Source: Lophium mytilinum (Eukaryota). Taken from it: a stretch of DNA of 64,000 bases. The stretch lies in the NCBI GenBank assembly GCA_010093605.1, contig MU004182.1:1211032-1275031 (forward strand). Direction: 5' to 3'. Made by a program: the position numbers and the translations under genes. The notes under the pieces were generated by a model that worked only from the letters and a program-made list of their open reading frames with translations, was not told the origin of the DNA and made no database searches. Of this stretch, positions 53,910 to 61,258 are shown piece by piece; position 1 is the first letter of the stretch, and each line of letters starts with the position of its first letter.

Positions 53910-55492
53910 TATCGGGAGACGACTTTCCGCCAATCAAACTACCCGATAGGTTTGCGGTATAACTACCACGGCTTCTACTTGACTTGGATAGTGTGCTTCG
54001 ACGGCTCACAGTGCTTGCAGATCGACCACATCAAGCACCGAGTATGAAGGTGCAACGGTATCAATATTGAGGGAATGTGGGCTATATAGATGCTGACCTC
54101 AGCACATAGCCGACACGGCTGGGATTCTGTTACTCAAAACAATACTACTTCGCGATATCAAGCACTCTTCCTTTACTCGATTTATTCATCCACAAACCCG
54201 CTTTGTCGAAGCCACATTTAGGCTCAAACGCTATAATTACAAGCTCTCATCTCACGCCGATCGTTGCTTATCGCTCGCGACTGACAGGCCAAAAAACCAA
54301 CACAAGCTATTTGTGTTGTCAGCTCGGGATTGCCTACAGGCATCAGACGCCTGCTTGATTCGACGCGATGAGCAAGGATACACAAAAGACAAATCCATCC
54401 CTGCCGAATACGCAGTACGCCGATACAAAGGTACGCAGTAGGCACGACTGTCCTACCTAGGGGTTCACCAAAGCTATTATGCAGGCGAACTCTTCTACCG
54501 CATTATCACTATAATTCCACATGTAGCCCTCCGATATGGAGCAAGATCCTTCCAATCCAAGGGTTGGTGGTATGCAGCTCGTCAGACTTCGGAACTCAAC
54601 ACAGCTGAGGCATAATCAAATTAGCATTGCCTTATGATTTTCCAAGCCTGGCATCTCAGTAGCACCAGGACCGCTTACTCGCCTAGAAAGGCCCCCCCAT
54701 CAGTTTCGTATAATAATCCAGAACCGCGCCACACTGTTGGGCTGTGTATCTTCCTCGAACAGCCGGCGGAGTCTGAAATAAGATGCCGAGCTAGCCCGAG
54801 CGCATCTTAACCTATTTCAAGGACGACACCCCGTTTGAGACTACTGACCGAGGCATCGATCCAATTGACCGCCGGACAGTTAGTGCTTGCAGCTAGCACC
54901 ATGGATTCACACGATCGACGCTATTATCCTGGCACTGCACCGTGTAGGGATTCGCGGCTGGTGTCAGCCTCGACTGCTTGAGGACTGGACTGCGAAGCCA
55001 ACCCCGACTGCTTGATGATTCGACTGCATTGTCATCGCTTTGGCCACAGCTTTTTCCAGTTCCGCTAGTGGTAAGACGTGATACCCGGCGCTTTCTAACC
55101 CCCGACGCGCTTTTTACAGCCTCTGGCCGCATTTCGTGATTGGCGTGCAGGTGGCTGCGAGGGTAAGTTACGGTACTGGAAGCTGATGAGAGATATTCTA
55201 CTGGCCGGGGTAGCTTTTGCAGGGTTAAAGAGACTTCTATTACACGGCATCTGCGAGATACGCTAGCCACGACATGCGGCCATGCACTGTACCCCATATG
55301 AGGGGGGTCGAAAGCGCCTGGTATGTGGGCCTGCTATTTTAGTACCTAGACTTTGTCCGCCTCTATAAAGGGTGGAGGGAAGGGACGTTGAGGGCCTTTA
55401 ACTTGTAATCTAACTGCACCCCACCACTTCAACTACCTAGGAATTGCGACCACGTCTCTTGGCCCTTGATACTTTGTTCTATTGCCGTGGAA

Positions 55493-56899
55493 ATGTATAG
55501 TCTCACTGAGAATTTCACAGAGCTGGCGGCTCAAATTGCTTCAAACACCGCTATCATAACCGAGTATCTCAAGAAAAACGGTCTTCCCGAGCCTGATTTC
55601 ACGGTCGATGCTGCAGGGGAACTACCTCAGGTACCAGAAGTACAAGAAGCGCGCCTGAACTTGATCGATGCTACCTCCAAACTCCGCCATCTCGCTACCG
55701 GCGCGGATGAGTACCTTCGGACAGAATCCTTCATTGTAAGACAGCGAGTTCAGAAGCTGGGTCAATAAACTGACTTAAACATTAGATGCACCACGACGAA
55801 GCAGTCTTAAACGTTTTTACGCAATTCAATGTCTGGTCTGCGGTCCCACAGCATGGCAGTGCACCAGTCGCTTCCATCGCATCGACCACGGGGTTACCCG
55901 AGGAAAAGCTCCGCCGCCTACTAAAGCACGCATTCACGATGGGACTCTTTGCTGAGACCTCACCGGGATCATGGGAGATCGTGCATACAGGAAGCTCGGC
56001 GTACACGTATAGAAACCCTTTGATTAAAGCCTGGGTTGGCCATAACCTCGAGGAATGCCTGCCAGCGTCCATCCGCCTACCAGACGCACTCCGCAAGTAT
56101 ACTGACAGCCAAGAGCCGGCGCACTGTGGCGTTGCTGTCAATTTCTACCCCGACGCTCCGTCAGATACGACGCTCTTCAACTGGTTTGAAGCCGCTCGTG
56201 AGGGAGAAGAGACCGGCTGGCGGGCTCGACGCTTCGGGGAAGCTATGGCGAGCTTTTCTGAAACAGGCAGTGCGGACATCGCACACGTTAACGCTGGATT
56301 CGACTGGGACAGTCTCGGCGAGGCAACCGTTGTTGATGTACGTCTCCTCACCCCCGAATGCGCTCACATTCATACTAAAACACTCTCAGATCGGCGGCTC
56401 TATCGGCCATGCTTCCATCGAGCTGGCTTCCAAACACCCGAAGCTCAAGTGCATTATTCAAGATTTCCCAGAGCTCGAATCGCGAGCCGACGCTCTCGTC
56501 CCCGCCGCACTCAAATCGCGCGTCACGTTCCAGGCCCATAACTTCTTTGAGCCGCAACCCGTCGTTGCGGAAGTGTATTTCTTGAAGCACGTTCTCCACG
56601 ACTGGTCTGACAAGTATGCTATCAAAGTCCTGAGGCAGCTCGTCCCGGTCTTGAAGGCGGGCTCGCGCGTCATCCTTATGGAGTGTATTGTGCCACCGCG
56701 TGGTGCAGTGCCGGATTCGATTGGGCGAAATATATCCGGGCTGGATCTGCAGATGATGGTGATGGCTAATTCCAAGGAGAGGAACCCGGAGGAGTGGACT
56801 AAGGTAGTCAAGGAAGCGGATGAGAGGTTCGACGTAAAGGCGTTCGTGCAGCCACCTGGGAGCGCGGCGGGAGTGATCGAGATTGTTTGGAAGGGCTAG
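55493..56899 (+). CDS. SAM-dependent O-methyltransferase (family 2, secondary-metabolism type)
   Basis: Motifs VVD|IGGSIGH, IIQDFP, AHNFFEPQP, YFLKHVLHDWSD and KER. Introns 55736-55785 and 56338-56389; TATAAA at ~55364. Confidence 0.9.
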
Positions 56900-58037
56900 G
56901 AAGCTCAGTTGTGGTTGTCTGCTGATGGGGGGCATACATACGAGAGCGAATGATTGCCAGGAATCTCTGGCAATCATGTTTTTTGCGAATCTTTAGAAGC
57001 CAAATCTATGAGCTCAGGATCATGGCTCGTCTTTAAGAAGGGAATTGATCATACAATGAGATTACTGGTTCTCTGACTGAGGTCTCAACGATCGGCAAAC
57101 TGGTAGAGACCTTCGAGTTGACGAACAATGGCGCGGTGCCTGATCGGTTGCTGCAAGCCTTGCCTTCTTCAAATGAGCTGGATTCCGGGCTCAGCAATGG
57201 CTTTGTTTCCAACCGTTTCAGCTCTTTGTATTTGCTACTTCTGTATGGGTATCCAGCGTTGGCTCTCCTTTATTGAACCTAGCAACGTGATCATTGCGAG
57301 AAACATCACCGAACATTTCTGAAGGCCGAGCATATGTCATTGGTAGTATAGAAGGTGTGCTTCTTCTGGGATCTAGATGAAAACAGTCGTGGTTTGCTTC
57401 GCGGTGATTGTGACAAGCTCCTCTAGTAGTATACCAGCCCGAGCCCTGTAGTCCCTTCCCGCGCATGTGTACCCTTCCTCGTCATTATATAGCATCGTCC
57501 CCATCAATTAAACAGCAGAGACGAGTAAGCTAGGTCCAGACGCGCCCAGGTACTATCAATCGGGTCCAGGGGTGTTGGTTCCGGCATGGGAGCTGTATTG
57601 CGAGACCGTTCAGCTTCGTTACCAAAAAAAGGTCTTCGCAGTCATTCCATGGCGGAGTGTAGTCTTTGGTGATCCTTTATTATCCACGGAGCGGAGGCAT
57701 CGTGGAGACGTAGGAGGCGCTGAGACGCAAGTTGAGGTAGGCTACTAAAATCGTCGAGTCTCCCTAAGACACCGTCAGTGAACTGTTTTCTGCGCCTTCG
57801 AAGACAGACGCCAATTTCGCGTATTGCAACTTCAATCTCCTGGGCGAAAGATGTTCCTGTTGAAAGAGAGAGCCGTTGGGGGTGAAAGTGGTTGTGTTCT
57901 GAGCTTTGATGTTCGTCCCCCACACACGTCCCTGCCGCTAACACTCAAATTGGAGCCTGGCCCCATTCTTTCGCCTGTCCATTTTTACAAAGCTTATATA
58001 CTGATATTTTTTGGCCACAATCAAAATCACCCAGTAA

Positions 58038-58180
58038 GGTCTGTTGGTCTAGTGGTATGATTCTCGCTTAGGGTTCACCTTAAGTCGTTTGCGAGAGGTA
58101 AGCATCATCATCAAATCACTATTCAGCATTCCATAACTAACAACCTCATCAGGCCCCGCGTTCGAGTCGCGGACAGACCC
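58038..58180 (+). tRNA. tRNA-Pro(AGG) with canonical intron 58074-58089 and a second, spliceosomal-type intron 58098-58152
   Basis: The spliced product GGTCTGT TG GTCTAGTGGTATGAT T CTCGC TTAGGGT GCGAG AGGCC CCGCG TTCGAGT CGCGG ACAGACC C is a fully paired 72-nt cloverleaf. T-run terminator from ~58193. Confidence 0.9.
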
Positions 58181-58891
58181 ACAATCTGATTATTTTTTGC
58201 TTTTTTTTGGTGCTCTATATCATATATAGATATTAAGCAGTGTGTGTGTGTGAGAGCGGCATGTCTTTTTAGAGGTTAGATGGGATAGAAGAACAACCAG
58301 GGAATTCATTTTGTGGAAGTGTTACGGAGGTTCGCGTTTCGTGGTAATCTTTTGTAAGATGGGGTGCACTTTACGTAGACAGAGGAGTTGTGTCGCCCTG
58401 GAAAACGTAGCACAAGCCTTAGCAGCTTCTTGAGAGGCGTCTTTATATTTTCTCGAGGGGTGAGTCTAAACCTGTGCTGTATGTAACTCTAAGGCGAAAG
58501 CATTTCTTCGAGTTATCTAGCTTCGGACTTAATCTATAACCCTTAATTAAAAACGATATCTAGTTCAGCGGTAATGGCTATATCACAATGAAAGTGCATG
58601 TGGATCAAGTAGAGGATGCCCCGGCGTGGCATTACTCTTAAAGTCACTAATCGAGTCATAGATCTGTCAAGCACATATGGAGTTTGTTCACGACGCAGAA
58701 GTAAAGTGATGAAAGGTATGAACAAGAATTCGAGTACTCTATATATACCTTGATTGTTACAATACACTATGCCCGTCTTGGTCTAAAAATCCCAGGAAAG
58801 GTGGTATTTTGGGAGTTCGAATTAACTACCCTTAGTGTCTACCTTCTTAATCATGCGATATGGTTTCACGCACAAAAGAAGGCTGGCGGCC

Positions 58892-60140
58892 TTACTCTGC
58901 ATCCGTCGGCGCTACTGGAGGCGTGTCATTGACTTGAATACCGCCCCTCTTCTTTTCCTGGCTATCATGGAATGGTAGCTTCCATCCGCCCTCTGCCTCT
59001 GGCGTGCTCAACCATAGCCGCATCAAGTGACGGCGCGGAGCTGGGGGCGGGTAGTCCTTGTATGCAGTCCTAGCGTGTAGAACATGCTCGTTGGAGAGGA
59101 ATTGAATGTCGCCGATATCTAGAATCATATGCAAGCTGAGACGCACACAGGTGTCCTCAAGAATTTGGGCAGCACGTAGCTGAGCAGGCGAGAGTGGAGG
59201 AATGCGGCCGGCATCAGAGAAGCGGGTAAGAGATTTGACGTAGTAGGGATCCCATCTATGAGGTGAATTAGCTTTTGCGTGTGGTACAGCTTGGGCTTTC
59301 ATACTTGGAGTACACCCTCGGGTTCTCCCCTTTCTCCAAATAGAAGACCGACGTCTTTATCCACTCCTCCTCTCCCTTGCTGGTCTCCCCTTTGCGATCG
59401 AAATACCATTGCGGCTTCACTAGCTCCTCCGCAACATCCGGATGCTCCTGCTGCAGCACATTCCACACATGATGCGAACTCACCAGATCGCTTTCTCCGC
59501 CCTCGAGTGCTTTTGCTACGCAGAGAAGTCCTACGAGGTCACTGTCGTCGGCATGGAAGAATTGGCGCGCATTTGTGCGGTAGATCCGCACTTTATCGAT
59601 CTGGCTGCTGTCTTCTCCGAGATCCTTGACATGACCTAGGACGTGTCCGCGGCCGTTTTGAGATACGAAGTAGCCCAGATAAGTTCCTAGACCCATGTAT
59701 GCGACCGCGGATTTGCGAAGACCCCATTCGTCCACCGGAAAGCCTTTGAAGAGGAGGAATCCTTTGCCGTTGAGCAATTCGTGCCTCAAACTTTTAAGAA
59801 ATGTGCTGAACTCTGGGAGTGTGAAGTTCGACTGCGAAATCCCGGTCAACGGGGTTCCGGAGGCAATGAAGGCATCGGCGGCAGCGCTGATTTCAGCAAT
59901 CTCGGAGGCAGAAAAGGGGTGAGTCCAGCGTTCGGGGTTGCTGGCATAGTCTGCGGCGTCCCAGACTGTGGGGCCGGTGATGGTCTTGGGGAAGGCGGAG
60001 TAGGGTTGGAGAAGGTCGTAGAGGGGAGGGTGCTGGCCCGAAGTCTTGATGCCGTCTGGGAAGATGGATTTGGGGGCGGTAGACGGAGAGGAGAGAGTGT
60101 GAGGGGGTGCAGGTGCGGAAGCTGTAAGTGCTGGTGCCAT
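58892..60140 (-). CDS. TauD/TfdA (clavaminate synthase-like) 2-oxoglutarate/Fe(II) dioxygenase
   Basis: FHADD (HxD), GGES, GDIQFLSNEHVLHARTAY and RHLMRLWL. Intron 59304-59256. Confidence 0.9.
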
Positions 60141-60849: not shown

Positions 60850-60991
60850 GGCCCAATGGTCTAGTGGTATGATTCCTGCTTTGGGTAGCACACGCTCATG
60901 ATTGCAGGAGGCCCGTGAGTACACACCACACCATCATGCTCCGGACTCATTGCTAACCATAACACAGCGCGTTCGAATCGCGGTTGGGCCC
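60850..60991 (+). tRNA. tRNA-Pro(TGG) with canonical intron 60886-60902 and a second, spliceosomal-type intron 60915-60967
   Basis: The spliced product GGCCCAA TG GTCTAGTGGTATGAT T CCTGC TTTGGGT GCAGG AGGCC CCGCG TTCGAAT CGCGG TTGGGCC C is a fully paired cloverleaf. T-runs follow from ~61001. Confidence 0.9.
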
Positions 60992-61258
60992 CGAAAATGA
61001 TTTCTTTTTGCATTTTTTTAGACCTTTATGCTTCTCCATCGTGAGCGGACAAGATGCGCATTGAAACTGGGGCTGCATTTTTTATGGGCCATGCCAAGAG
61101 GACTAGCTTAACTGATAGTTCTATGAAAACAAACCTATGCACCAAGCTTTCCCACATTCTTCATATATCCGCTACACCCAAATCGCCCCCGTTTTTACAT
61201 CCGAGATGCTCAATAGCAGTCTAAATATGGGCTGTAACTTCATCGGGCAAAAGAGAAC

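Follow-up and report, generated by a model that had tools for sequence, protein, structure and literature searches.

Two proline tRNA genes in the window, as we call the whole 64-kb stretch of DNA analysed here, are each interrupted twice: once by a canonical tRNA intron at position 37/38, and once more, elsewhere in the tRNA, by a short insert that carries the splice signals of an mRNA intron. Judging by their sequences, these second inserts are probably true spliceosomal introns lodged in working tRNA genes. The first-pass annotation of this DNA had proposed a spliceosomal intron for one of the two genes, and that prediction now gains support from the other gene, from interrupted genes in metagenomes, from the conservation of the splice signals and from one contig of a sequencing run (X9) presumed to be RNA.

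Two doubly interrupted tRNA-Pro genes in the window

The first of the two genes, tRNA-Pro(AGG), reads in the sequence as it had been described, with a 16-nt intron at 37/38 and a 55-nt insert of the form GTAAGC..ACTAAC..CAG. Its parts are the following:

57995-58000, plus strand: TATATA box, 38-43 nt (about 43-44) 5' of the mature end and 23-28 nt before 58023, the start of the organism B contig described below
58038-58073, plus strand: exon 1 of tRNA-Pro(AGG), positions 1-37, with the acceptor 5' strand, the D arm with the A box and the 5' strand of the anticodon stem
58070-58072, plus strand: anticodon AGG, within exon 1
58074-58089, plus strand: canonical tRNA intron of the TSEN (tRNA splicing endonuclease) type, 16 nt, at 37/38 after G37 (ARAGORN)
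58090-58097, plus strand: middle exon, 8 nt, positions 38-45 (sequence and ARAGORN)
58098-58152, plus strand: spliceosomal-type intron, 55 nt, at 45/46 in the variable loop (sequence, excision tests and relatives)
58098-58103, plus strand: 5' splice site GTAAGC of this insert
58136-58141, plus strand: its branch sequence ACTAAC, with the branch A at 58140, 12 nt from the 3' end
58150-58152, plus strand: its 3' splice site CAG
58153-58180, plus strand: exon 3, positions 46-73, with the rest of the variable loop, the T arm with the B box, the acceptor 3' strand and the discriminator C
58193-58208, plus strand: Pol III terminator, T6 at 58193-58198 and T8 at 58201-58208, the T runs lying 13 and 21 nt past the gene

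In a fold of the gene, the 16-nt canonical intron is complementary to the anticodon loop.

Standard tools did not recognise the interrupted gene. ARAGORN in its default mode reported no tRNA in the intact 64-kb window, and neither did Rfam at its gathering score; when Rfam hits with E up to 10 were admitted between 57000 and 62000, there was again no tRNA, the single match being a chance sRNA (E 0.31). With introns allowed, ARAGORN forced the intact AGG span into a tRNA-Gly with a 59-nt intron, a nonsense call that was discarded. After in-silico excision of 58098-58152, the same program returned a tRNA-Pro(agg) of 72 bases with a 16-nt intron at 37/38, in which all four stems were intact, those of the acceptor, anticodon and T arms being perfect and the D arm of the usual Pro type; the earlier claim that exact GT-AG removal restores the stems was thus borne out. 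Owing to the AG/G repeated at the exon ends, an identical mature product results from four registers of the insert (start shifted from -2 to +1), of which only one is GT..AG.

The specificity of this pattern was assessed within the window, on both strands. A 5' splice-site pattern, followed by CTRAY 6-30 nt from the end and by a terminal YAG, was found in just one of 127,890 segments of 55 nt, presumably the AGG insert itself. Removal of candidate GT..CTRAY..YAG segments created a tRNA spanning the junction in 2 of 172 cases, and random removals of the same lengths did so in 0 of 860. Chance is excluded as the source of the pattern seen in the AGG insert. The insert also equals the likely mRNA introns of the window, which were defined by an ORF-joining heuristic and not by transcripts, in both size and signals, as the first-pass annotation had noted: these heuristic introns measure 49-91 nt and use GTAAGC, GTATGT, GTGAGT or GTACGT at the 5' end, CTAAC, CTGAC or CTAAT at the branch and YAG at the 3' end. 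The genes of the window include O-methyltransferase-like and TauD-like ones, its G+C content is about 50%, and its general look is that of a filamentous ascomycete. This placement draws on gene content and the style of the introns; a database match for the TauD-like protein narrowed the taxon no further than Ascomycota or bacteria.

A second Pro 5' half, lying about 2.8 kb downstream on the source DNA contig, led to the other interrupted gene, tRNA-Pro(TGG), at 60850-60991 on the same (plus) strand. It does not figure in the first-pass annotation. Its parts are:

60850-60885, plus strand: exon 1 of tRNA-Pro(TGG), positions 1-37
60886-60902, plus strand: canonical intron, 17 nt, at 37/38
60903-60914, plus strand: middle exon, 12 nt, positions 38-49
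60915-60967, plus strand: spliceosomal-type intron, 53 nt, at 49/50, where it splits the 5' strand of the T stem
60915-60920, 60952-60957 and 60965-60967, plus strand: signals of this insert, GTGAGT, GCTAAC and CAG, respectively
60968-60991, plus strand: exon 3, positions 50-73
61005-61019, plus strand: Pol III terminator, T5 at 61005-61009 and T7 at 61013-61019, 14 and 22 nt past the gene

The branch A within GCTAAC lies 11 nt from the intron end, and a TATA-like box is found about 43-44 nt upstream of the gene. Only a single register of the TGG insert restores the tRNA, and excision of both introns gave a tRNA-Pro(tgg) in ARAGORN. When the GT-AG insert alone was excised, the program reported a long-arm tRNA-Gln, which we rejected as a mis-parse. 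Both ARAGORN and Rfam miss the two genes of the window, and annotations of such fungi may accordingly lack whole tRNA families, an absence that would distort analyses of codon usage and tRNA supply.

Interrupted tRNA-Pro genes in metagenomes

Metagenome contigs were scanned for the D-arm and T-loop motifs of Pro tRNAs with 85-115 extra bases between them, a pattern that preselects Pro genes carrying that many additional nucleotides, and at least 118 stretches were obtained. A solver then searched each stretch for one excision, unrestricted in its location and its ends, that would restore a Pro cloverleaf with an optional intron at 37/38. The 119 pattern matches evaluated comprise these loci (at least 118) and the two window genes, minus those short of flanking sequence. 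Solutions were filtered by demanding 7/7 acceptor pairs and by excluding cuts adjoining 37/38. These filters removed tandem tRNA pairs (L003, L027, L037 and L091), which the solver had resolved by deleting half of each gene, as well as degenerate solutions obtained where a gene has a single long canonical intron.

Among the matches listed, 30 of the 119 evaluated, window genes included, had 7/7 acceptor pairs, the remainder being mostly tandem tRNA genes. One long intron at the canonical position explained 16 of these 30 listed genes, although L066, counted among the 16, really consists of two tandem Pro genes. A second excision was needed in 13 of the 30 listed genes, 11 from metagenomes and the two of the window; L018 is identical to L104. 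One further locus, L015, gave no solution: it carries a GTGAGT..CACAG insert without a valid tRNA after its removal. Three additional genes with 6/7 acceptor pairs (L011, L014 and L081) have a GT-AG insert at 53/54, again with the full set of spliceosomal signals.

The solver placed no demand on the ends of the excised segment. Even so, all 13 second inserts among the matches listed had GT-AG ends, a 5' splice-site consensus (GTRNGN), a CTRAY motif 9-20 nt before the 3' end and a terminal YAG, which was CAG or TAG in every case and CAG in both window genes; their lengths ranged from 49 to 64 nt. Each of these 13 listed genes also has a canonical intron of 11-19 nt at 37/38. Conversely, none of the 29 introns at the canonical position among the matches listed had GT-AG ends (0/16 of the long and 0/13 of the short ones). 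Seven tRNA positions are occupied by second inserts among the matches listed:

27/28: L001, L080
28/29: L009
33/34: L021, L077, L082
45/46: window AGG gene, L039
49/50: window TGG gene
52/53: L033
53/54: L018/L104, L036

Exons were flawless, with all stems paired, in 13/13 two-insert genes among the matches listed; a run of at least 5 T's followed within 40 nt downstream in 12/13, and a TATA element stood at -31 to -46 in 7/13. Where the insert lies at 53/54 or 52/53, the final G of the intron occupies in the DNA the place of the B-box G53 or G52, and the internal promoter would therefore be little disturbed. The longest T run within the inserts is 2-4. Avoidance of T runs was considered as a signature of Pol III and dropped, the likely mRNA introns of the window being equally poor in T runs (3 at most), so that the feature does not discriminate.

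Identity between the AGG and TGG inserts was 0.64, against a mean of 0.61 (sd 0.04) after shuffling, and no pair of inserts rose above the shuffled background except the duplicate L018/L104. Multiplication in the manner of introner-like elements, or copies of one mobile intron, was therefore rejected as their origin, similarity among the inserts of the window and the scanned loci being at background level.

Copy number, conservation and a candidate spliced transcript

Evidence from sequencing runs was drawn from assembled Logan contigs that passed the filter, not from reads. In the DNA run that probably represents the source organism (X1), the AGG gene is crossed by one single-copy contig at a depth of 160. 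The intact identical copies that the first-pass annotation had envisaged as another source of this tRNA did not appear: the filtered contigs of X1 contain no second gene with the 5' exon of the AGG gene. Besides the TGG gene, these contigs include just one more Pro-like 5' half, which has 3 differences and sits on a separate contig. Judged from the filtered X1 contigs, the AGG gene of the window may thus be the only one.

Nor were the splice signals lost in a relative, another outcome that had been foreseen. A DNA run of a sister organism, B (X3), covers 58003-58180 of the orthologous locus, and the insert is in place there. Seven substitutions and one deletion are listed relative to the window, all of them within the insert (9 other letters are recorded, 2 of them unlisted). 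None of the listed changes touches GTAAGC, ACTAAC or CAG, and none falls in the exons or the canonical intron. The TGG gene of organism B lies about 2.7 kb away; there, too, GTG follows the exon, and its canonical intron is different. A further version of the AGG insert came from a soil contig of an RNA-labelled library (X5, record 11), with 12 substitutions and 6 indels. Its 5' site is another form of the consensus, its branch is ACTAAT and its CAG is kept, with no exon difference listed. This insert, the only one met in an RNA-labelled library, is unspliced, at a depth of 6, and the library holds many ordinary Pro precursors or genes; the contig may stem from RNA or from DNA carry-over.

A contig of 376 nt and depth 39 from X9, a run with the organism B label that is RNA by guess, joins 58095/58097 to 58151/58153. 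It skips exactly 55 nt (GT..AG) and keeps the 16-nt canonical intron, with 0 other letters in its aligned parts. No joint skipping the insert was present in X3, the DNA run with the same organism label. The contig has its oddities: 15 A's that are missing from the DNA of organism B precede 58023, and 258 nt extend past the T runs, its 3' side aligning to the window over 30 letters only. That X9 is RNA is suggested by those 15 extra A's, by the unequal depths of two loci, by the absence of the TGG gene among the X9 contigs examined and by the short records. These two loci, single-copy in the DNA runs, had depths of 39 and 79 in X9, compared with 160/159 in X1 and 148/134 in X3, and the longest record reached 11 kb in X9, whereas the DNA runs had records of up to 62 and 82 kb. 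The contig itself could alternatively derive from an intron-less DNA allele, from a Pol II or read-through transcript, or from a merged assembly.

Alternative explanations for the inserts

The insert might be spliceosomal and yet be spliced out of Pol II or read-through RNA alone, with little or no tRNA being produced, or with the tRNA being released from a Pol II host by RNase P/Z. The X9 contig, which runs 258 nt beyond T6 and T8, would be abnormal for a Pol III transcript, and recruitment of the spliceosome is as a rule coupled to Pol II. Nevertheless, we hold this explanation to be improbable. Among the matches listed, T-run terminators stand behind 12/13 of the two-insert genes, both internal boxes, A and B, are intact and a TATA element is found near -40 in 7/13, features that are kept only by Pol III genes. 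Moreover, contigs can merge overlapping transcripts, and the long 3' extension need not belong to one RNA. A precedent also exists in fission yeast, where the Pol III-made U6 precursor is spliced, as set out in a passage of PMC5855946.

It is very unlikely, in our estimation, that an insertion has turned the locus into a tRNA pseudogene, with tRNA-Pro(AGG) being supplied from elsewhere. Decayed copies may exist, as L015 with its GTGAGT..CACAG insert and lack of a valid tRNA illustrates. Against this, both window genes have perfect exons and an intact terminator, and terminators are likewise intact in 12/13 two-insert genes among the matches listed. Organism B retains the insert, with changes confined to places outside the signals, and the filtered X1 contigs include no other copy sharing the AGG 5' exon. 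Finally, random insertions would not be expected to bring a complete set of splice signals in 13/13 genes among the matches listed.

The positions of the inserts in the window, 45/46 and 49/50, are not the TSEN position 37/38. A detector of bulge-helix-bulge (BHB) motifs gave hits in 0/13 GT-AG inserts, a result without power, since its positive control was weak (2/13 canonical introns, in relaxed mode). The AGG insert is poor in G, and minimum-free-energy folds of the precursor show no helix joining its ends, although one of these folds was only partly constrained and had its D and anticodon-stem pairs mis-set. That the inserts are tRNA introns at a non-canonical position, cut by the endonuclease through a BHB-like fold and with merely incidental GT-AG ends, is extremely unlikely: ectopic tRNA introns do occur in a few eukaryotes and many archaea (as parts of PMC3978253 relate), and the AGG pre-tRNA in any case depends on TSEN to remove its 37/38 intron, but a structural motif does not predict splice-signal sequences, which in four kinds mark 13/13 second inserts, versus GT-AG ends in 0/29 canonical introns, among the matches listed, and the X9 contig, RNA by guess, lacks the GT-AG insert and has the canonical intron.

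Proposed maturation pathway and its implications

Returning to spliceosomal introns in working genes, we propose that both Pro genes of the window are functional nuclear tRNA genes whose precursors would contain two unrelated introns. Pol III would transcribe each of them from its intact A and B boxes, aided by the upstream TATA, and would end at the T runs. In the AGG precursor, U1 and U2 would recognise GTAAGC and ACTAAC, and the spliceosome would join 58097 to 58153, by analogy with U6 of fission yeast. The mRNA-type intron, a candidate of the U2-type GT-AG class at 45/46 (AGG) or 49/50 (TGG), would in this way be taken out by the spliceosome, and the 37/38 intron would be cut by TSEN and sealed by tRNA ligase. 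The cloverleaf body could form only after GT-AG removal, with TSEN cutting the canonical intron afterwards; TSEN would act second because it measures from the mature domain, which is foldable only once the GT-AG intron has gone. The single X9 contig, RNA by guess, likewise suggests that GT-AG removal precedes removal of the canonical intron.

The trait can be regarded as inherited and recurrent, because similar predicted introns are found at seven Pro tRNA positions in many environmental contigs. On balance we lean towards a lineage, probably of ascomycetes, in which spliceosomal introns have repeatedly colonised tRNA genes and single-copy essential tRNAs need the spliceosome first and then TSEN and ligase. 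If so, the supply of tRNA would depend on spliceosome activity, precursors made by Pol III, uncapped and about 150 nt long, would be regular substrates of the spliceosome, and standard tRNA annotation would miss whole isoacceptor families in such genomes. Provided that the inserts are spliced as their signals say, tRNAs would become hosts of spliceosomal introns, one small RNA would need both machineries, and the substrates of the spliceosome would include Pol III transcripts beyond U6. Intron gain could then also be studied in a gene of 72 nt in which every position is constrained.

Comparison with known systems

Our search of the literature, which covered open full text, retrieved no description of a tRNA gene with a spliceosomal intron, in line with the first-pass annotation, which knew of none in tRNAs. 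In the relevant passages of PMC12530127, the three nuclear intron types are presented as unrelated and spliceosomal introns are placed in Pol II transcripts, and in those of a tRNA review the spliceosome is mentioned purely as a contrast (PMC10275265). Removal of tRNA introns is described in passages of both, and of PMC13149111, as proceeding without the spliceosome.

The nearest parallels are found in other non-coding RNAs. The hosts of spliceosomal introns named in the corresponding part of PMC5855946 are the U6, U2, U5 and U1 snRNAs and rRNA, a list in which tRNA does not appear. They include mRNA-type introns in the U6 genes of Schizosaccharomyces pombe and other fungi, and in U1, U2 and U5 of Rhodotorula, for which that part of the text gives Tani and Ohshima (1989, 1991) and Takahashi (1993, 1996) as sources. 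Like the fungal snRNA introns, the tRNA inserts are GT-AG introns with a branch site inside a small, structured non-coding RNA gene, and U6, as a known system, is itself transcribed by Pol III. In the snRNAs the introns occupy different positions from one species to another, as though inserted independently, and the tRNA inserts give a similar picture. Unlike in the snRNAs, the host is here a tRNA and the same precursor also bears a TSEN intron, so that two splicing systems would meet on one RNA. Reverse splicing into a neighbouring snRNA is not directly applicable to tRNAs, because these are not components of the spliceosome.

Spliceosomal introns in the rDNA of ascomycetes have reportedly been described by Bhattacharya et al. 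in 2000, a study cited in PMC5855946. The tRNA inserts resemble them in being of the spliceosomal type, in interrupting a gene that is not transcribed by Pol II and in occurring in ascomycete-like fungi. The rDNA introns, however, sit in large rRNAs made by Pol I, whereas the tRNA inserts interrupt a tRNA of 72 nt whose gene is followed by a Pol III terminator. The introner-like elements of fungi are near-identical spliceosomal introns that multiply, and such elements could be one way for new short spliceosomal introns to reach unrelated genes. In contrast to them, the tRNA inserts resemble one another no more than shuffled sequences do, L018/L104 excepted.

Among tRNA genes themselves, ectopic introns of the BHB type are known from the red alga Cyanidioschyzon merolae and the nucleomorph of Guillardia theta, as described in part of PMC3978253. 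According to that part of the paper, tRNA genes of these two and of archaea can hold more than one intron, located in the anticodon stem, the variable region or the T arm, and are missed by standard tRNA finders, both of which recall the genes studied here. Their introns adopt a BHB fold and are cut by the endonuclease; the inserts described here instead have GT, a 5' consensus, CTRAY and YAG in 13/13 genes among the matches listed. Each of the two window genes also has one intron like the canonical eukaryotic 37/38 introns, which passages of PMC10275265 and PMC12530127 assign to TSEN and ligase. The second insert departs from these canonical introns in lying elsewhere in the tRNA and in following a different sequence grammar. 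What is new here, and what the sequence comparisons support, is a predicted spliceosomal-type intron in a new class of host, the tRNA, where it would act in series with the tRNA endonuclease.

A second proline tRNA gene in the window

The window was found to carry, on the same strand as the tRNA-Pro(AGG) gene (58038-58180) and 2.8 kb downstream of it, a second proline tRNA gene with a TGG anticodon, which none of the tRNA finders run on the window had called. This gene harbours a canonical (TSEN-type, 37/38) intron of 17 nt and a 53-nt GT-AG insert at position 49/50, within the T stem. The AGG/TGG pair is also present in the sister organism B, with a spacing of about 2.7 kb. The other features of the neighbourhood are listed together with the TGG gene:

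55409-56899, + strand: O-methyltransferase-like gene with short introns (e.g. 55736-55785)
58892-60140, - strand: TauD/TfdA-like dioxygenase gene with short introns (e.g. 59256-59304), its protein being assigned to the TauD family in Atlas with very high confidence
60850-60991, + strand: tRNA-Pro(TGG) gene

A short (GT)n microsatellite (58241-58256, + strand) was also observed, some 60 nt past the 3' end of the AGG gene.

Outside the window, a third Pro-like 5' half was detected on a separate contig of the probable source DNA run (X1 record 2), with three differences over 58041-58073, and again in the DNA run of organism B (X3 record 4) and in X9 (record 14), a run labelled organism B and taken by guess to be RNA. 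Beyond the 5' half, this sequence runs on for 30 nt or more that are unlike the normal continuation of the anticodon stem; it may represent a third proline gene with a long or unusual intron, perhaps with a CGG anticodon.

Ends of the X9 contig

The X9 contig in which the exons of the AGG gene are joined across the GT-AG insert (record 13) aligns to 58023-58180 of the window. On the sense strand, 15 A residues precede 58023, which are not found in the DNA run of organism B, and the contig extends 258 nt beyond the T6 and T8 terminators (T runs) behind the gene.

Insert positions in metagenomic proline tRNA genes

Among the matches listed from the metagenome scan, L022, L028, L031, L071, L073, L074, L089 and others contained one canonical-position intron of 60-88 nt, in each case devoid of GT-AG ends; these genes belong to other organisms. 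In the 33/34 class (L021, L077 and L082 among those matches), the spliceosomal 3' splice site and the 5' cut that releases the canonical intron lie just 4 nt apart, the micro-exon between them consisting of the anticodon AGG and G37. Another Pro-like locus, L015, pairs at 7/7 acceptor positions, and its anticodon loop is interrupted by an insert of the form GTGAGT..CACAG, the removal of which leaves a loop too short for a tRNA. The acceptor and T arm of L015 resemble those of L021, and the locus may have arisen by decay of a gene related to the 33/34 class; alternatively, it may have an architecture outside the coverage of the solver.

Finally, inserts at 53/54 or 52/53 split the B box in L011, L014, L081, L018/L104, L036 and L033, again among the matches listed. 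In the DNA, the final G of these introns stands in for G53 (or G52), and therefore a near-consensus B box can still be read across the 3' splice site.
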